A DNA stretch of 60,930 nucleotides, filler included, from 5 parts of 5 records of this genome joined end to end with filler, not necessarily neighbours in it; one strand, 5' to 3'; positions 3,857 to 46,048 are shown, counted from the first letter of the whole stretch. Notes: generated by a model from the sequence alone, not told the origin. Numbers and translations are program-made.

Positions 3857-4600
3857 ATGGAATCTATCAAGAAAAAAATTGCTCTATTTGTGTTTTTATT
3901 GTTCGTCAGTTTTTACGTAAGCTCACAGAATGCGGCGATTATGGTCACGGAAGTAGGGAATGTCGGAATCGGAACCGAGGCTGCTACTGAAAAACTGGAT
4001 GTATCGGGAAATGCCAGGGTCCGGGAAAACCTCAGTATAGAAGGGAATTTCACGGTAGCCGGTGTCGGCCATGCCTACGTACCGAGGGGGGCCATACTGA
4101 TGTGGTCCGGCAGTATAGAAGAGATCCCGGAAGGATGGGTTTTATGCGACGGCCAGTCCCATAACATACGCTTGGAGGATGATACGGATCTTACCGTACA
4201 CACTCCCGATTTGAGAAGCCGGTTTATCGTCGGAGCCTCTCCGGAAGGGACTGTACTGGCCGATGGATTAAGCCCTTACCCTGTCGGGGCTAAAGATGTA
4301 AACGGCGAGGGAGAAGAGAAGCATACATTGACTGTTGAGGAGATGCCGGCCCATGATCATGGGGGATCTAATAATTATACCAACACCGATGGGGCGCATC
4401 GGCATTATACTGGCATGACAAGTAGTCATACAGGCAATACGAAGCGTGTTACTGTAGGCTGGGATGAGTCACAAGGAGCACAATATACAGCTACCGATGG
4501 TGCCCACCGGCATAGGTTCACCATCCCATCGGAAGGGGGCGGGCAGGCCCATGAGAACAGACCCCCTTATTTCGCCCTGGCCTTTATTATGAAAACCTGA
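3857..4600 (+). CDS. Secreted phage tail-collar/tail-fibre-tip domain protein
   Basis: AGGAG RBS; Sec-like signal; GNVGIGT; VPRGAILMWSG..IPEGWVLCDG..PDLRSRFIVG; GEEKHTLTVEEMPAHDH; HENRPPYFALAFIMK. Confidence 0.85.
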   Translation: MESIKKKIALFVFLLFVSFYVSSQNAAIMVTEVGNVGIGTEAATEKLDVSGNARVRENLSIEGNFTVAGVGHAYVPRGAILMWSGSIEEIPEGWVLCDGQSHNIRLEDDTDLTVHTPDLRSRFIVGASPEGTVLADGLSPYPVGAKDVNGEGEEKHTLTVEEMPAHDHGGSNNYTNTDGAHRHYTGMTSSHTGNTKRVTVGWDESQGAQYTATDGAHRHRFTIPSEGGGQAHENRPPYFALAFIMKT

Positions 4601-20992: not shown

Positions 20993-21008
20993 TGGCATCA
21001 TGCTTGCT
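20993..21008 (+). promoter_or_regulatory. Sigma54 promoter of the amidohydrolase
   Basis: TGGCATCATGCTTGCT (GG-N10-GC). Confidence 0.8.
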
Positions 21009-22294: not shown

Positions 22295-22310
22295 TGGCAC
22301 AGCAATTGCT
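22295..22310 (+). promoter_or_regulatory. Sigma54 promoter of the TRAP operon
   Basis: TGGCACAGCAATTGCT, consensus -24/-12. Confidence 0.88.
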
Positions 22311-35783: not shown

Positions 35784-36647
35784 TTAATAGGCCTTGCGCT
35801 TGTTAATATTCTGCCCGATGACACTGAAAGTATTTTCGACTACAAAAATAGCTTCAGGATCGATATCAAAAACAACCTGCTCAAGGGAACGCAAACGCAG
35901 GTTATCGGTAATGGAATAAACCATATCAATGCGTTCACCGGAATAACCACCCTTGCCGGGAATAATGGTGGCATGCATCTTTTTATTCCGAGTCAGTTCG
36001 TGGATTATAATTTCCGATTTGCGGGAAATAATACGAACAGCCTTGCGCTGGTTAAAAAGCGAAAGCACGTACTCAGTCAATACGGAACTGATAAAAAGCA
36101 TGAGTAACGAGGCAATTATCTTATCCGGGGTATACCTGCTCAACGCAAAACTCATGACAACAGCGTTGATTACAAAATAGAAGGCCCCGAACCTTATCCC
36201 GTAACGCTGGTTGAGGATAACCGCCACAACATCAAGTCCGCCTCCCCCGCCGTAAGTTCTCAGGATAATCCCGCATCCGGCCCCCATAATCGCACCGGAT
36301 GCAATGGACGCATACATCTCATTTTGGATGCCAAGGTCAAGATGCACATAGGAAGTCAGCATCGTAACCATACCCATGGTCAGCAGGTTAAGAAAAAAAA
36401 ACCTGCGACTGACCCCTTTCCAAGCCAAGATGAACAACGGGATATTCAAAAGCAAATACCACCGGGACAAAGAAAGTTCCGGTGATATTTTCTGCATTAC
36501 AACTGCAAATCCGTAAAGAGCTCCGGGCACAAAATTATGGTGTGCAGCAACACCGTTATACCCGATGATAAAAACAAACGCCCCGACCATGAGCAGGAAA
36601 ATATTCCAGACAAGGGAGTCACTAATCTGCCTGACTTTATGTTCCAT
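35784..36647 (-). CDS. YitT-family membrane protein
   Basis: LLNIPLFILAW, GGGGLDVVA, GKGGYSG, DIDPEAIF. Confidence 0.9.
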   Translation of the reverse strand: MEHKVRQISDSLVWNIFLLMVGAFVFIIGYNGVAAHHNFVPGALYGFAVVMQKISPELSLSRWYLLLNIPLFILAWKGVSRRFFFLNLLTMGMVTMLTSYVHLDLGIQNEMYASIASGAIMGAGCGIILRTYGGGGGLDVVAVILNQRYGIRFGAFYFVINAVVMSFALSRYTPDKIIASLLMLFISSVLTEYVLSLFNQRKAVRIISRKSEIIIHELTRNKKMHATIIPGKGGYSGERIDMVYSITDNLRLRSLEQVVFDIDPEAIFVVENTFSVIGQNINKRKAY

Positions 36648-37584
36648 AGTTATGGGCCTTTCTCCTCAAGAAGTTGAGAGATCCACCATAGAGGGCAAAA
36701 AGAATTCCTGAAATAATTATCAAACCGCTGAAAACCTGATTCGTATTAACTGGCTCATGAATGACAAACCAGGCCACAACTGCACTTGCCGGGGGCAAAG
36801 TGTAGTAAAACAAGGCCGCCTTGGAAGCTCCGATAGCCTCTACAGCCATATTCCAAAACAGATAGCAGAGGATTGAAGCAAAAACAGAGAGATAAATAAG
36901 CGAAACCACGAGATTGTAAGTGAACTCGGGCATTACGATCTGACCGCCGGTTTCCCAAAAATACAGAGGGACAATGTACAAAGTTCCGAACAGGCAGCAG
37001 GACATAAGCAGGGTTGTCTGACTTATCTTGCCGGCCACTTTATTTACAACGGTATTGTAAATTGCGGACATCATGGCCGTACACAGAATAAGCAGGTCGC
37101 CCTTGGCCAGATGCATGTTCAGCAGTGTATCGAGACTGCCGTCAGTAACCAACAGGGCAACTCCGAAGGTGCTGACGGCAATCCCCGCATACATGCTCGG
37201 CTTGAGCTTTTCCTTCATGAAAAATTGGGCAATCAAGGCAGTAAGCAGGGGAGACATGGTTGAAATAAGGGACATGTTCAACGCTTCGGAAGTCTCCCCG
37301 GCAATAAAGACCAGAGTATCGTAAAGGGAGATGCCGCAAAGAGCGATGACGGAGAGCTCTTTCCAATAGCGGGCAACCAGATGACGCTCTTGAATGAAAG
37401 CCCTGAGTCCGAAGGGAAGGAAAATCAGCGTGGCCAGCACCCAGCGCAACAGGTTGAGTGTAGCGGGGTCAATGGTCCCGGCCAGTCCGCGTGCAGCAAC
37501 AAAGTTACCGCTCCAGTTAAGAATACCAAGAATAATAAACAGATATCCAGCTTTCTCGGTTTTTTTGAATTCATTCCACTTCAT
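36637..37584 (-). CDS. DMT/EamA-family transporter
   Basis: AGGAG RBS; WSGNFVAAR, GDLLIL, YLFWNMAVEAIGASKA; about 10 TM segments. Confidence 0.92.
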   Translation of the reverse strand: MKWNEFKKTEKAGYLFIILGILNWSGNFVAARGLAGTIDPATLNLLRWVLATLIFLPFGLRAFIQERHLVARYWKELSVIALCGISLYDTLVFIAGETSEALNMSLISTMSPLLTALIAQFFMKEKLKPSMYAGIAVSTFGVALLVTDGSLDTLLNMHLAKGDLLILCTAMMSAIYNTVVNKVAGKISQTTLLMSCCLFGTLYIVPLYFWETGGQIVMPEFTYNLVVSLIYLSVFASILCYLFWNMAVEAIGASKAALFYYTLPPASAVVAWFVIHEPVNTNQVFSGLIIISGILFALYGGSLNFLRRKAHNYGT

Positions 37585-37599
37585 TGTCCAGCTCCTAAA

Positions 37600-37949
37600 A
37601 TATTATAATGGCCCGCCCGCTTTGCAGTGGGCAGGCCTAAACCTCTTTGTTGGGAAATATGCCGATGGAAAATTTCCGTACTTCAAGGATGTCGGTTCAA
37701 ATATCTCGTTACCGGACAAGCTCTTGGAAAGTTGGGCTGGTGACGCTTCTGGCGGAAACCGGATTTCATTGCGTTGAGAATTCCGGTGAAGAGGATGTTG
37801 CAGCCAAAGAGATAAGTATTCTGCAATACCCGAAGCATAAAGACCGTGGGTCCTACGGCTTTCACCTTCAATGTGCCCAGTTGCTTTCCAAGAGCTTAAC
37901 TCGATCAAGGCTTATGTCTTGTTTCGAAAAATACCGGTAGCACAATCAT
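37600..37949 (-). ncRNA. Candidate structured ncRNA or 5' leader transcribed from a sigma54 promoter
   Basis: 14-bp perfect long-range stem (37718-37731/37884-37897), several internal hairpins, GC hairpin at 37610-37637, no credible ORF. Confidence 0.55.
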
Positions 37950-37959
37950 TCAGCCCTAA

Positions 37960-37975
37960 AGCATATGATGTGCCA
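37960..37975 (-). promoter_or_regulatory. Sigma54 promoter
   Basis: Minus strand TGGCACATCATATGCT (GG-N10-GC). Confidence 0.75.
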
Positions 37976-38039
37976 CACATGTAAGTGGCTAATTTAATTG
38001 AATTATATAAACACAACATAATACAAAACAAAAAAAGAG

Positions 38040-38122
38040 CGACACTAATGTCGCTCTTTTTCGCAAAAACAATGTAAAACGTCTTATTTTATGTCATTTT
38101 ACTTAAAACGACACAAGTGTCG
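38040..38122. promoter_or_regulatory. CGACA-N4-TGTCG palindromes, candidate enhancer sites
   Basis: CGACACTAATGTCG (38040) and CGACACAAGTGTCG (38109). The first lies inside an A/T-flanked terminator-like hairpin (38032-38061). Confidence 0.7.
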
Positions 38123-38155
38123 TAATGCGCTACAAATGTCATATTACACAAATCA

Positions 38156-39625
38156 TTAAAGTCCGTATTTTTTAAGTTTTCTCTGCATGGTGCGCATATT
38201 TAAGCCCATTTCTTCTGCAGTAGCACCTTTTTTCCAATGATTCCGCTCTAGTGCCTTAAGAAGAACATGTCTTTCAAAAGATTCGACAGCATCAGAAAAA
38301 GTTGTACCTGATTCGAACAATTTCACTGCTTCTCCCACTTCCGGACCGGCCTCAGGGGTATGAATACCCAGATCACTGAAGACCATCTCCCCGAAAGTAA
38401 GATATCGCTCAAGCACATTCTGTAATTCACGAACGTTTCCGGGCCAATGATGATGGTCCATGGCGGCCCTGATTTTACCGGGAATTCGCGGCAGCGAATC
38501 AGTCCGCCCCAGATAACGGGCCATAAATTCGTTAATAAGCAACGGCAGGTCCTCGATCCTCTCCCGCAGGGGCGGAACATGGATTGGCAAGACGTGCAAC
38601 CGGAAAAAGAAATCAGAGCGCATCAGCCCCTGCCGGACCAACTCACTGAGGTCCCGGTTGGTAGCGGCAATGAGCCTGAAATTAGAGGAGCGTGGTTCGG
38701 TTCCGCCCACCGGAGTATAAAGCCTGCTTTCAAGGGCACGCAACAGCTTGACCTGCAAGGCAAGATCAATCTCTCCCACTTCATCAAGAAACAGGGTACC
38801 CCCGTCAGCAGCAGCCAGATAACCCTGACGATCGGAAGTTGCACCTGAGAAAGCACCTTTCACATGGCCGAAAAACTCACTTTCCATCAGGTTGGACGGG
38901 ATAGCCCCGCAGTTGACCGGCACATAAGTCCCTTCGGACCCGCTCTGTTCGTGAATAGTCTGGGCCACCAGATCCTTACCGGTCCCTGTTTCACCAAAGA
39001 TAATCACATTGGAATCGCGCTTGGCAGCTTTCATAATCAGCTTGAAGACTTCACGCATGCCATTGCTTTTGCCAATAATACTCCCGAACTTAAAGCGGTC
39101 CTCAAGGGTCCCCCGCAAGTTCTGGTTCTCCTGCATGAGTTCATACTCACGAAGTTTCTGGGCACTGACATCAACCATAATCCCTTCAAGAATGGAAGGA
39201 TTGCCCTCTTCGTCATAAAGGCATTCACCCTGATCCCAAATCCACTTCTGACGGTCGGAATCAAGGCAGACCCGATAAAGAAGTTTATAGGAACGATGGT
39301 TCAGGATCGCTGCGTTCTGTTCTTTACGCATGACTGAAAGATCATCAGGATGGGCCAGAGTTTCCATGACATTGGTATGCTGATCTGTGAAAAACTCCGG
39401 AGCTACTCCAAAAAGCTCACTACTCCCCTTACTGACGAAATCGAGTGTCGGGTGCATATTCTCGTCAAGCGAACAACGGTAAACCATCCCCGGAAGGTTG
39501 TTAAAAAGGCGGGTCAGCTGCAGTTTACTCTCCTGCAACTCTTTTTCGGTTTCTCTGGAAGTTTTAATCTGCTTCTCAAAAAGGCGGCATTGTTCAAGAA
39601 GCTCATCATATGTAGGTTTATTCAT
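38156..39625 (-). CDS. PAS-domain sigma54-dependent transcriptional activator
   Basis: GGAGAGG RBS before MNKPTY; PAS (NLPGMVYRC); GETGTGKD; ESEFFGHVKGAFSGA; WPGNVRELQN; HTH. Confidence 0.95.
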   Translation of the reverse strand: MNKPTYDELLEQCRLFEKQIKTSRETEKELQESKLQLTRLFNNLPGMVYRCSLDENMHPTLDFVSKGSSELFGVAPEFFTDQHTNVMETLAHPDDLSVMRKEQNAAILNHRSYKLLYRVCLDSDRQKWIWDQGECLYDEEGNPSILEGIMVDVSAQKLREYELMQENQNLRGTLEDRFKFGSIIGKSNGMREVFKLIMKAAKRDSNVIIFGETGTGKDLVAQTIHEQSGSEGTYVPVNCGAIPSNLMESEFFGHVKGAFSGATSDRQGYLAAADGGTLFLDEVGEIDLALQVKLLRALESRLYTPVGGTEPRSSNFRLIAATNRDLSELVRQGLMRSDFFFRLHVLPIHVPPLRERIEDLPLLINEFMARYLGRTDSLPRIPGKIRAAMDHHHWPGNVRELQNVLERYLTFGEMVFSDLGIHTPEAGPEVGEAVKLFESGTTFSDAVESFERHVLLKALERNHWKKGATAEEMGLNMRTMQRKLKKYGL

Positions 39626-39649: not shown

Positions 39650-39677
39650 CGACATTTGTGTCGCGACACTTATGTCT
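39650..39677. promoter_or_regulatory. Tandem CGACA-N4-TGTC sites upstream of the activator (autoregulation candidate)
   Basis: CGACATTTGTGTCG immediately followed by CGACACTTATGTCT. Confidence 0.7.
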
Positions 39678-39775: not shown

Positions 39776-40051
39776 CTATTGCGCTTTGTGAAGTTTATCC
39801 AACCCGTATTCAGAAATACGGTAGACGGACACAAGCTCCCCTTTGTCATCCACATAAGAACCTTCCTCGTGAAGGATTCCAACGGCCTTAAGGGACTTAA
39901 GGTGTTCTGAAATAGTTGAGACAGAGCAATATTTCTCGCCGGGATAATAGGCGCAGACAAGCTCATGAATCCCCTTAACATCAAGGGGTTCGCCGTTACC
40001 AAAGATTTCCGCAATATAAAGCTTGAGCGGCTTCTGGATTTGCATATTCAT
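39776..40051 (-). CDS. Small winged-helix-like protein
   Basis: AAGGAG RBS; helix-rich start, then HLKSLKAVGIL...YRISEYG wing pattern. Confidence 0.65.
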   Translation of the reverse strand: MNMQIQKPLKLYIAEIFGNGEPLDVKGIHELVCAYYPGEKYCSVSTISEHLKSLKAVGILHEEGSYVDDKGELVSVYRISEYGLDKLHKAQ

Positions 40052-40062
40052 ATCTTGTCTCC

Positions 40063-41067
40063 TTAATCCACGTTACGAAGGTTAACCATGTCTTTGGGAT
40101 TCCCTACGACCATGACCATACCAATGGTGATGATTGCTGCACCGATAAGCAGGGAAGCTGTAATTTCGATTTCGGTAAAAATCGCACTGAAAAAGATGCC
40201 CCACAGGGAGTAGGTAATATTAATAGCCATGGCACGGCTAACACCGGTCATGTTCATGGCCCGGTACCAGCAGAGGTAGGAAAGTGCTCCGGCAAATGCA
40301 GCAACAGGGAAAACCCAGGAAATTTCACTGGTCAGTGCGGGGACGATGAGATCCCAACCGCCTGCAAGAGGAAGAACAACTGTCAGGAAGACTGTTGTGG
40401 AAGTAAGCTGGCGAACGTTGAGGGCAACAGCAGGATCAAGGAAGTCCATGCTGGAGGTAGCCAGCACGCCTTCAACCCCCCAACCGAAAGTAGCTACAAG
40501 GGCGAGCATGATACCGAGGTAGAATTCGGAGCCCACTGCACCTTCGGGCGGGGTGTAGCCGATGACAATACCACCGACAATGCACATGACCAGACCGACC
40601 CAAGCCCTTTTACAGATACGTTCTTTAAGAAAAATTGAAGCAAAGACGGAAGCTACAGCCGGGTAAAGGGCTGTGATGGGCATCACATAAGCCGCTCCGG
40701 CGAATTTAGCACCCAGAAAATAGCAGGACATGGCTACCGGACCGCCGAAAACAGCGCCGAGCATAACCAGACGTGCAGGCTTACTGCGCAGGGTACGGCC
40801 CAATTCCTTCATCCTGCCGGTAATGACATTGTAAATCAGCAACCAGAAAGCGGAAAAACTGTCGTGAAGGCCGGCTACGGTCAACGGAGCCAACAACCAG
40901 AGACTGTCGTCAGCAAAAGCCGCGATACCGAAGGCCATTGCCAGAACAACACCATCAAACCCCCAGGTGATACCGGAAAGCAGAGCCCAAAAAAGCCCTT
41001 TTTTTGCAAAACCCACGTCCTGTTTCAGCTTCAGACCGTCAAGGGTTGTCGCGCTTGCAGTACTCAT
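40063..41067 (-). CDS. DMT-family transporter (LicB-like)
   Basis: Start MSTASA; GGPVAMSCY, ALYPAVAS..FLKERI, RAMAINITYSLW. Confidence 0.85.
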   Translation of the reverse strand: MSTASATTLDGLKLKQDVGFAKKGLFWALLSGITWGFDGVVLAMAFGIAAFADDSLWLLAPLTVAGLHDSFSAFWLLIYNVITGRMKELGRTLRSKPARLVMLGAVFGGPVAMSCYFLGAKFAGAAYVMPITALYPAVASVFASIFLKERICKRAWVGLVMCIVGGIVIGYTPPEGAVGSEFYLGIMLALVATFGWGVEGVLATSSMDFLDPAVALNVRQLTSTTVFLTVVLPLAGGWDLIVPALTSEISWVFPVAAFAGALSYLCWYRAMNMTGVSRAMAINITYSLWGIFFSAIFTEIEITASLLIGAAIITIGMVMVVGNPKDMVNLRNVD

Positions 41068-41132
41068 GTGTTCATCCCCCATTCCCGCGAAGCCACACCC
41101 CCGGCCCACGGCAGTTGTATAAATAGTACAAA

Positions 41133-41154
41133 AGGGCCGGAGTACTCCGGCCCT
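41133..41154 (-). terminator. Palindromic hairpin / terminator
   Basis: AGGGCCGGAGTACTCCGGCCCT followed by a T-run on the minus strand. Confidence 0.6.
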
Positions 41155-41220
41155 GAATATATTCAATAAAATCAAACAGGCGACCTAGAAAGTGCCAAAT
41201 AACACTTTCCGGCTGACTGG

Positions 41221-44294: not shown

Positions 44295-45614
44295 TTAGGG
44301 TTGCCCCCCGCTTCCGCCATCTTCCGTGGCCGGCAGATATATGCGGACAGAGGTTCCCACATCCAACTTTGATTCAATACAAATGAGCCCGCCATGATTT
44401 GTAACAATCCCATAGGCTGCGGACATCCCCAACCCACGACCCACAAAGTGGGTTGTAAAAAACGGATCATACACCTTCTCCAGGGTTTTTGAATCCATAC
44501 CTTTTCCGTTGTCCTCAACGTGAAGGCATACATAGGGCCCTGGTTCGTGATTGGGATGTTCACGCTTTAAAGCCCCATTCAACATCTCGTTTTCACATGA
44601 AATTTGAATGAAGCCATCCTTTCCGACAGCTTCAACGGCATTTTCAATAACCGCGGAAACCACCATGCTGAGCTGGTTCGGATCCACGGTGACCCTTGGC
44701 ACATCCGGGGCCGGATTGAACTCCATTTGGACGGAACCGGGGATATTCCGGCGCATGGACAATACAATGGATCTCACAAAATCGCTCATGACAAGAGGTC
44801 TGGAATGGTATCTTCCCCTGAGACCGCAGGCTAGAAGCTGGGAGGTTAGATTCGCCATGCGGTCCGCGGCCCGTTTCATGGGTTTGACGCAATGCATGAT
44901 CTTTTCATTGTTGGAAAAATCCATTTCCAGGAGCCCGGTGTGAGCGGTGATGGATGACAGGGCATTGTTGAAATGATGGGCGATACCACCCGTCAGGGTG
45001 GCAATGGCTTCCATCTTCCGCATTTTCCGTGTCTGCTCTTCAAGCCGCTTTCGATCGCTGATATCGTGAATGGTGGCCAGAATGGCATCTTCCCCCCCAA
45101 TTGAAATCCGGCTTGAATAGACCTCCACATCTATGATGGATCCATCACGACGGACATCTCTCAGTTCGTAGACGGCTTCGAGATTTTTCGGCCATCTCTT
45201 TCGCCGGTCCTCAAGTATCTTTCGGTCCTCTTCATGGATAAATTGGAGAACGTCGCTTCCCAAAACTTCCTTTTCATCATCAAAGCCATGCAATTCCAGC
45301 CATTTCCCATTAACTTCAACAATCTTGCCGTTTTTTGCCAGGCTCATGGCCTCTCTAGACTCTCGAAACAGGGTCCGATAACGTATTTCACTCTGCCGAA
45401 ACGCTTCCTCTGCACCTTTAAGATCCTTGTGCATCCGCATCAGCTTTTTATTTTGCGCCTCCAGTTCAACCTGGTAAATCTGAAGATCCTCAAGAAGGTT
45501 TCGAATGTCGGTGGCGGACATCTTTTTGAGGGAGGAAGCGCTCTTCGTAAGCATTTCTTCCGTCTGCCGCCGAAGCTTTAAAGCACTTTTCATGCCTGTG
45601 CCACTCCGTTTCAT
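44295..45614 (-). CDS. PAS sensor histidine kinase (no receiver)
   Basis: GGIAHHFNN; DNGKGM, DPFFTT, GRGLGM. Start reassigned to ATG 45614 (G-rich RBS) because the longer ORF overlaps the riboswitch. Confidence 0.9.
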   Translation of the reverse strand: MKRSGTGMKSALKLRRQTEEMLTKSASSLKKMSATDIRNLLEDLQIYQVELEAQNKKLMRMHKDLKGAEEAFRQSEIRYRTLFRESREAMSLAKNGKIVEVNGKWLELHGFDDEKEVLGSDVLQFIHEEDRKILEDRRKRWPKNLEAVYELRDVRRDGSIIDVEVYSSRISIGGEDAILATIHDISDRKRLEEQTRKMRKMEAIATLTGGIAHHFNNALSSITAHTGLLEMDFSNNEKIMHCVKPMKRAADRMANLTSQLLACGLRGRYHSRPLVMSDFVRSIVLSMRRNIPGSVQMEFNPAPDVPRVTVDPNQLSMVVSAVIENAVEAVGKDGFIQISCENEMLNGALKREHPNHEPGPYVCLHVEDNGKGMDSKTLEKVYDPFFTTHFVGRGLGMSAAYGIVTNHGGLICIESKLDVGTSVRIYLPATEDGGSGGQP

Positions 45615-45670
45615 GGGGAACCCCCCCTCATGAACTGCGAGGTTTTCAGATTCAGGATGAAATCGCATGT

Positions 45671-45712
45671 AAACAAAAAAAGCCCCCGGGGCATAATCCA
45701 AACAGGGGCCTG
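45671..45712 (-). terminator. Riboswitch expression-platform terminator
   Basis: Minus strand GGCCCCTG...CCGGGGGC followed by TTTTTTTGTTT. Confidence 0.75.
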
Positions 45713-45734
45713 CATCGCTACACAACCACAAGCA

Positions 45735-45820
45735 TTTCGGCAACCTGGCAATCATGACCTGTAAGGTTTTAGACCCACGGCTTTGCGTACCCCCCCCTTT
45801 CGAAGGGTTTGCCTTTTCGT
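45735..45820 (-). ncRNA. Cyclic di-GMP-I (GEMM) riboswitch
   Basis: Minus strand GAAAAGGCAAACCCTTCGAAAGGGGGGGTACGCAAAGCCGTGGGTCTAA...ATGATTGCCAGGTTGCCGAA fits the GEMM consensus. Confidence 0.92.
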
Positions 45821-46048
45821 CAGCATTTCCAAATGAGCTTACGATAGAATGATGGTTGTGTAAAGGAAAAATCAGTAAGGCCTTTTAAGATAAAGGGTTT
45901 GAAAATTCGTTGCACCGGTTCACGCATCAGGAATGCCAATCCATCAAAAAAGTTGACATGCACCCGGAAATGGTTACTTTTAACCTCAAACGGTACGAAA
46001 TGCAACGCGGTGCAACGCGTTAGGCCGCTTTCAAAAGGAATCCACGTC

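Follow-up and report, generated by a model that had tools for sequence, protein, structure and literature searches.

Organisation of the locus

The DNA analysed here is a stretch of 60,930 bases (referred to throughout as the window), and this report concerns an interval of about 365 nucleotides (nt) on its minus strand, which lies between a sigma54 promoter and a pair of transporter genes and which for convenience we term the leader. An initial annotation had proposed that the interval specifies an undescribed small RNA (sRNA) or cis-regulatory RNA that forms a unit with a dedicated PAS activator and the two transporters. The evidence set out below, chiefly compensatory base changes, sequence conservation and synteny among homologues, indicates that the interval probably represents an uncatalogued RNA family of very narrow distribution, seen in a few related marine sulfate reducers and acting either as a cis-regulatory leader or as a sigma54-dependent non-coding RNA.

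The first gene of the operon (36637-37584, minus) encodes an EamA/DMT transporter (Pfam EamA, E 7.6e-38), the product of which gave weak NCBIfam matches, all under cut-off, to carboxylate, amino acid and amine transporters and to YddG. A search with this protein yielded 15 loci, seven of them 84-94% identical and in records titled Maridesulfovibrio (one Desulfovibrio sp.). The second gene (35784-36647, minus), the start of which overlaps the EamA stop, encodes YitT_membrane and DUF2179 domains by Pfam scan, and a YitT gene is found 3' of EamA in 13 of the 14 EamA loci that were checked (none was found in locus L008). The EamA start codon, ATG (37582-37584, minus), follows the Shine-Dalgarno sequence AGGAG (37592-37596, minus). 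On the far side of the interval lies the gene for a sigma54 enhancer-binding activator (38156-39625, minus), with PAS_3, Sigma54_activat, AAA_lid_14 and HTH_8 domains by Pfam scan. The flanking genes are as the initial annotation had named them: an activator with PAS, sigma54-interaction and HTH_8 domains, an EamA transporter and a YitT/DUF2179 protein. The activator is 84-94% identical in loci L001-L007, and its probable start is the ATG at 39625, which stands behind a Shine-Dalgarno-like GGAGAGG; the gene caller gives 39655.

The -24/-12 promoter, TGGCACATCATATGCT (37960-37975, minus), reads TGGCAC-N5-ATGCT, and the window has only one other sequence that fits TGGCAC-N5-WTGCW exactly. It agrees with the Desulfovibrio consensus, tGGcacg / tTGCt, as quoted in a section of PMC4641369. 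The TGGCA and TGC of the promoter were invariant in all ten homologues of our alignment (A2), and the promoter is also kept in loci L006-L009 and L014. The other exact match to the pattern is at 22295-22310 (plus), with a one-mismatch match near by at 20993-21008 (plus), and both are candidates for additional sigma54 promoters. The predicted +1, counted from the -12 GC, falls at about 37949, which is 365 nt before the EamA ATG at 37584 and reproduces the earlier count. The first 16 nt of the predicted transcript (37934-37949, minus) are invariant in the alignment, including ACCGG (37934-37938). The first dozen or so transcribed bases, GATTRTGYTRCC (37936-37949, minus), are conserved even in L006 (3748-3762) and L007 (3949-3962), the leaders of which are otherwise unrelated or short.

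Predicted structure of the leader

When the 366-nt interval was folded, the minimum energy was -121.4 kcal/mol, compared with -95.9 +/- 4.95 kcal/mol for shuffled sequences (z -5.15), and none of 100 shuffles folded as well. The minimum-energy fold reproduces a 14-bp stem with GGGC/GCCC and GGUG/CACC extensions, three hairpins enclosed by it, and a GC hairpin at 37610-37637. All of these helices, along with an outer ACCGG/CCGGT pairing, had been picked out in the initial annotation and were found where it had placed them. The same architecture is seen in the most divergent full-length homologue (z -5.60).

At the 5' end the consensus fold has a small hairpin (H1/H2, 37901-37927, minus), in which one pair changed on both sides. 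It is followed by a multi-branched 5' domain (37718-37897, minus) that is closed by the 14-bp stem, P1, and that is seen in the minimum-energy fold, in the consensus fold and in covariation. The arms of P1 are at 37884-37897 and 37718-37731, and the window contains the 14-mer AAGCTCTTGGAAAG at these two places only (minus at 37884-37897, plus at 37718-37731); 11 of the 14 P1 pairs never vary across the alignment. Within the domain are the hairpins H6 (37843-37859), H8 (37792-37831) and H9 (37759-37786), all on the minus strand. The loops UCUCUUUGG (in H8) and ACGCA and the junction UCCGCC are invariant, as is the loop ACGCAAUGAA of H9, which sits inside a covarying stem. The H5/H6 branch is missing from homologue G004 (L019) as the result of a single clean deletion of 36 nt (A2 columns 128-163) that leaves the rest of the leader in place; loss of this branch alone is what a modular RNA would tolerate. 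A CsrA-type GGA loop in H6 was considered and rejected as it is not conserved, GGA being absent, by eye, from G306 and G003.

The 3' domain (37585-37717, minus) is nearly invariant among homologues and forms the long-range helices H10 and H11 in the consensus fold. It contains GUCCGGU (37711-37717), CGAGAUAU (37701-37708), an inner hairpin (37642-37688), the anti-Shine-Dalgarno-like ACAUCCUUG, the GC-rich 12-bp hairpin H15 (37610-37637, minus), the Shine-Dalgarno sequence and GCUGGAC (37586-37592). H15 is followed by an A/U-only tail, AUUAUAAUAUUUU, which is not a U-tract, and then by the Shine-Dalgarno sequence. It was not called by the terminator scan, whereas the activator gene has a canonical terminator hairpin of its own (38031-38062, minus), and inspection by eye for an anti-terminator around H15 gave only 5-nt complements. 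The sequence UCUCUUUG in the H8 loop is complementary to CAAAGAGG in the 3' domain and both are invariant; by our own estimate an 8-nt match of this kind is expected by chance given the size of the RNA, and the pairing is only a lead.

Compensatory changes and purifying selection

Covariation was assessed in the ten-sequence alignment A2, which represents about five to six lineages, using the RNAalifold consensus from which a spurious promoter helix had been removed (99 pairs). Standard pairs were present in 96.1% of the 975 cells. A total of 16 of the 99 pairs changed on both sides, compared with 4.0 +/- 1.7 in column shuffles (0 of 500 shuffles reached 16), although it should be held against our reading that the structure was derived from the very alignment in which the pairs were counted, which favours structure somewhat. 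When partners were slid by one to three columns as a further control, two to six pairs changed on both sides. The alignment of homologous regions thus stands above both the shuffled and the slid controls, and by fold energy as well as by pair changes the structure noted initially goes beyond chance.

The compensatory changes are concentrated in four helices, H6 (four of five pairs), H9 (three of eight), H8 (two of ten) and H15 (three), and come mainly from three to four lineages (G003, G004, G306 and G307/G308). H6, for example, is found as CCGU/ACGG, CCGC/GCGG and CUCC/GGAG. A point that counts against the strand assignment is that the antisense strand folds about equally well (z -5.01), so that fold energy alone cannot tell the strand. 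In the pair counts, 937 of the 975 cells pair on the sense strand compared with 837 on the antisense strand, and 111 cells are G-U; the G-U pairs favour the sense strand.

It can be seen from five homologues that the leader is 95.4, 92.4, 73.9, 76.6 and 66.7% identical to the window, compared with 70.5, 54.7, 43.0, 51.4 and 34.3% for the EamA 4-fold sites of the same five; the first of these is the closest relative and the third a distant one. The corresponding figures for the 3' 133 nt are 97.0, 93.3, 88.8, 75.2 and 85.1%. We conclude from these identities that the leader is under strong purifying selection, and the interval very probably specifies a functional structured RNA.

Coding potential

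An alternative reading is that the interval encodes a small protein, be it from a sense open reading frame (ORF) of 101 aa, an antisense ORF of 97 aa or a short peptide starting at a 5'-terminal NUG. Both ORFs exist (37603-37908, minus, and 37647-37940, plus, respectively), and in this respect the initial annotation, which had seen no credible ORF, needs to be amended. The antisense ORFs have a common start site in most homologues, and in each of the ten leader-bearing homologues an ATG, TTG or GTG begins at the predicted +1. However, the sense ORF is at least 100 aa long in only three of the ten homologues, and the antisense ORFs vary between 31 and 112 aa, change frame from one homologue to another and have their shared residues in positions that map to invariant RNA loops. 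Neither ORF matched a Pfam family. Many insertions and deletions are not multiples of three, even among homologues that are about 92-95% identical, and the 5' peptide is, by eye, conserved only as MIVLP, after which the frame shifts with the length of a T-run. These comparisons indicate that the leader contains no conserved reading frame, nor was any small ORF conserved across the ten homologues, so that the substance of the earlier statement holds; of all the readings considered here a small protein is the least probable.

Known RNA families

No known riboswitch or housekeeping RNA had been recognised in the interval, and scans with Rfam 15 agree with this. At the gathering threshold the only family found in the whole window was the c-di-GMP-I riboswitch, outside the leader. 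When 37400-38200 was scanned at E values of up to 10 only sub-threshold noise was seen, which within the leader was confined to U6atac (12.5 bits against a threshold of 33). Likewise, four homologous loci scanned at E up to 1 gave no recurrent family except a sub-threshold U6atac look-alike (22.9 bits, one locus). The c-di-GMP-I riboswitch (RF01051) is at 45736-45823 (minus), with 73.3 bits compared with the 35 set for gathering, and at its 3' end it runs into the called start of an ORF of 486 aa (44295-45755, minus). Its detection shows that known leaders are detectable in the window sequence. A literature search, which did not extend to the supplements of PMC4641369, found no description of the leader RNA, nor any riboswitch associated with YitT/DUF2179. 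Within the reach of Rfam 15 and of the literature searched, the RNA is indeed undescribed.

Distribution and copy number

By blastn the leader is recognisable in five of the 15 EamA loci, and in all five the activator sites, the promoter and both transporter genes are syntenic with it. The unit of activator and two transporters that had been proposed is therefore seen wherever the leader occurs among these loci. Of 26 genomes from the genus to which the nearest relatives belong (records titled Maridesulfovibrio), nine have the leader, always at the same locus. Each of these nine genomes has one significant place, that of G004 consisting of two adjoining pieces split by the deletion. Among five genomes that were searched whole, four have the leader at one significant place each, the remaining matches being of 17-39 nt at E >= 0.13, and the fifth (G005) gave only a 51-nt match to the promoter region. 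Copy number was judged throughout in relatives.

Beyond the genus, a DNA search of a family sample matched four of 301 genomes, three of which belong to the leader's genus. The fourth match (G074, 30 nt, E 3.7e-4) lies inside a helix-turn-helix-type coding sequence and was rejected as a chance match. A covariance model of the 5' domain (R1) matched only its seed genome of 151 genomes of the family sample and gave no match in the other 150, nor in the distant EamA loci L006-L015. Searches of plasmids and phages gave no match to the leader. A metagenome pattern scan found one stretch, which by eye is the same sequence as the G003 homologue and adds no diversity. The leader was also found in assembled contigs from three of four sequencing runs (none recorded as RNA), the fourth giving no contig at this place. 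In runs X2 and X9 a single contig extends from the promoter into the EamA start, and in X16 two overlapping contigs do so, with no joints seen; these contigs give no information on expression. From these searches we conclude that the leader is single-copy, syntenic and restricted to one clade.

The distribution bears on whether the interval is a neutrally evolving relic, either of a decayed gene or of a mobile element such as a miniature inverted-repeat transposable element (MITE), the terminal inverted repeats of which would be 14 bp long. About 150 nt are enclosed by a perfect inverted repeat of this length, the leader is patchy among close lineages (nine of the 26 genus genomes, and neither L006 nor L007), and there are long ORFs on both strands in the window. 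Against this, no dispersed copies were found in leader-bearing relatives, in each of which the leader is single-copy, and there was neither a plasmid or phage match nor a covariance model match in the 150 other family genomes or in L006-L015. Conservation is far above that of synonymous sites and is accompanied by compensatory changes. Moreover the whole 365 nt is clade-specific, and not merely the part between the inverted repeats. We regard a relic as largely refuted already, and as very improbable.

A leader or a separate RNA

Promoter and ATG are 366-398 nt apart in the structured clade. In orthologous operons outside it the spacing is 278 nt in L006, 358 nt in L008, 268 nt in L009 and 180 nt in L014, and in L007 it is 78 nt, measured from where the promoter match begins. 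What L006 has in common with the leader-bearing loci here is limited to the promoter and roughly the first 50 nt of the leader. The leaders outside the clade are not significantly structured, with z scores of -0.49 (L006), -1.58 (L008), -1.06 (L009) and +0.27 (L014). The same promoter thus serves loci with short or unstructured leaders, which implies that the operon depends ancestrally on this promoter; the orthologous operons have no other predicted promoter, and no sigma70-like site was predicted inside the window's leader. Given this dependence and the lack of a predicted sigma70-like site, transcription of EamA-YitT should pass through the structured RNA. In the leaders of two distant orthologues, L009 (about 415-440) and L014 (about 3905-3930), a common motif, TACAACGCCGCA..GGTGCGGCAA, lies downstream of the sigma54 promoter and may be a different conserved leader element; one of the two is from a Halodesulfovibrio-titled record and the other from an unclassified metagenome-assembled genome.

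The interval might instead specify a trans-acting, sigma54-dependent sRNA, either standing alone and ending at H15 or cut from the 5' untranslated region (UTR). Such an RNA would pair with other mRNAs or hold a protein by means of its 3' domain or of invariant loops, for example those of H8 (UCUCUUUGG) and H9 (ACGCAAUGAA). In keeping with this, the strong 12-bp GC hairpin H15 has compensatory changes, stands just before the Shine-Dalgarno sequence and is followed by an A/U-only tail; the single-stranded loops are invariant within variable stems; and the long P1 stem could be a processing site. In addition, the D. vulgaris Hildenborough sigma54 regulome is reported to include four non-coding RNAs (PMC4641369). 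However, H15 was passed over by the terminator scan and its tail is no U-tract, although a stop there could be weak or factor-dependent. Hairpins that end a few bases short of the Shine-Dalgarno sequence also occur in the unrelated leaders of L006, L007, L008, L009 and L014, where there is no structured domain of sRNA size. There is also no other predicted promoter from which the operon could be transcribed. The comparative evidence therefore favours a 5' leader over a separate sRNA, and we consider an sRNA unlikely, though the foremost of the alternatives. Of the initial proposal, a structured, non-coding RNA with a predicted sigma54-driven transcript has held up; of the two options that it offered, an sRNA or a cis-regulatory RNA, the second, as a 5' leader, is the more likely.

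Two predicted alternative folds around the Shine-Dalgarno sequence

If the interval is a 5' leader, two mutually exclusive folds could connect it to translation. Fold B is the minimum-energy fold in nine of the ten homologues, while in G306 the minimum is fold A. In fold B, two elements just 3' of P1 form helices around the Shine-Dalgarno sequence, GUCCGGU with GCUGGAC (H10) and CGAGAUAU with AUAUUUUAG, and the decoy GAGG holds an invariant, anti-Shine-Dalgarno-like CCUU. Of the five Shine-Dalgarno bases, three are left unpaired in eight of the nine homologues and two in G004. In fold A, CCGGU (37711-37715) instead pairs with ACCGG (37934-37938) near the 5' end to form helix P0, and all five Shine-Dalgarno bases pair with the invariant ACAUCCUUG in six of the ten homologues.

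These folds suggest a model in which the sigma54- and activator-dependent EamA-YitT mRNA would carry a leader of about 365 nt that acts in cis after transcription has started. Fold A could arise ahead of fold B as the RNA is transcribed, since its pairing partners are synthesised sooner, and fold B would clamp the stretch from the Shine-Dalgarno sequence to the AUG in long-range helices. The state of the large 5' domain, the conserved loops and junctions of which could bind a ligand, a protein or another RNA, might bias the choice between the two folds and so gate translation. The choice of fold would then add a second checkpoint to the activator's signal. We consider it about as likely as not that the interval is a cis-acting 5' leader, specific to the clade, in which two alternative pairings gate the ribosome-binding site. 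That it should be a ligand-sensing riboswitch proper is a good deal less likely. Equally doubtful is a more specific form of the model, in which the 5' domain would be the aptamer of a new riboswitch class sensing a small molecule related to the EamA-YitT cargo and would make up, with the PAS sigma54 activator, a two-input AND gate.

A number of observations weigh against a two-fold switch. Fold A costs 2.4-9.7 kcal/mol in nine of the ten homologues, and in four of the ten it leaves the Shine-Dalgarno sequence not fully paired. P0, H10, the anti-Shine-Dalgarno element and the decoy are all invariant (in H10 five of seven pairs never vary and none changed on both sides), and since the switch elements are invariant covariation neither supports nor refutes their pairing. 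The Shine-Dalgarno sequence is not predicted to be clearly less accessible in fold B than it is in leaders from other genera that lack structure, a comparison in which the start positions of L006 and L007 are one base off. The 3' domain is more conserved than the 5' domain, which is the reverse of a typical aptamer and expression platform. Finally, the transcript start, the 3' end and read-through into the operon are all predicted from sequence.

The leader might also be a constitutive structural 5' UTR that does not switch, and that would only stabilise the mRNA against 5'-end-dependent decay, set a fixed rate of translation or provide an RNase III site. The structure and its conservation are shown, yet no alternative fold is supported by covariation, and P1 with its extensions would be a plausible substrate for a double-strand nuclease or a protective cap. 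However, some 130 nt of mostly unpaired or weakly paired 3' sequence are near-invariant, which goes beyond what a passive stabiliser would need, and the sister lineage L007 has the same operon with a promoter-to-ATG interval of 78 nt. A constitutive UTR is accordingly improbable, and somewhat more so than an sRNA; the gated leader is the reading that we prefer.

Should a cis-acting leader be confirmed, it would represent a structured RNA family, absent from the catalogues and of recent origin in a single genus, that is inserted between an operon and the ancestral sigma54 promoter of that operon. In sister lineages the promoter is retained in front of leaders that are short or lack structure, and the RNA would thus afford a view of how a complex regulatory leader is born. 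It would also provide a handle on the substrate of the EamA-YitT/DUF2179 pair, as whatever flips the RNA should relate to the cargo. If the AND gate were correct, transcription would need the activator's signal and translation that of the RNA, a rare and recently evolved pairing of an enhancer-dependent promoter with a riboswitch. The reach of any such conclusion is limited to one locus, in nine of the 26 species genomes searched in one genus.

Activator sites and neighbouring genes

Two exact copies of the palindrome CGACA-N4-TGTCG, candidate upstream activator sites, lie between the promoter and the activator gene, the proximal one at 38040-38053 and the distal one at 38109-38122. The window contains three exact copies, all of them flanking the activator gene, and five matches when up to one mismatch is allowed, a number that none of 100 shuffles reached. 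The palindrome is found upstream of the promoter in ten of 14 EamA loci, and in each of the ten loci with both elements 78-81 nt separate the start of the proximal site from that of the TGGC promoter match downstream; site and promoter are conserved as a unit. The third exact copy (39650-39663) and a copy with one mismatch (39664-39677) are directly upstream of the activator ATG at 39625, which suggests that the activator regulates its own gene from these palindromes. The proximal site forms part of the stem of the terminator hairpin that ends the activator gene, and one palindrome may thus double as a terminator in RNA and a binding site in DNA.

Further upstream of the activator gene, in 39776-41175 on the minus strand, there is a second EamA-family gene (40063-41175, 370 aa) and an ORF of 91 aa (39776-40051), which is followed by a hairpin and a T-run.

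Comparison with known systems

With MITE-like palindromic insertions the leader shares a perfect 14-bp inverted repeat around about 150 nt and a patchy presence in close lineages. It differs from them in being single-copy and under apparent purifying selection with compensatory changes, and no target-site duplication was seen by eye.

Another likeness is to sigma54-dependent non-coding RNAs, such as GlmY, Qrr1-5 and CrcZ, in that a -24/-12 promoter and a dedicated enhancer-binding activator drive a structured non-coding transcript. The leader differs in running on into a downstream operon for which no other promoter is predicted, and in having no canonical terminator. It has no sequence or Rfam relation to catalogued sRNAs, a comparison from which the four D. 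vulgaris RNAs were left out. In Desulfovibrionales, RNAs of this type are reported in the sigma54 regulome (PMC4641369).

Accepted riboswitch classes recur across taxa and genes, whereas the leader is found at one locus in one genus only; its putative expression platform is more conserved than its putative aptamer, and the switch pairings show no covariation. The c-di-GMP-I riboswitch (RF01051) of the same genome is, like the leader, a cis-regulatory structured leader, but it has no similarity to it and measures 87 nt compared with about 365 nt. What the leader has in common with riboswitches and other structured leaders is a multi-branched domain with covarying variable stems and invariant loops and junctions, a position upstream of a transporter operon, and predicted mutually exclusive pairings, one of which would bury the Shine-Dalgarno sequence.

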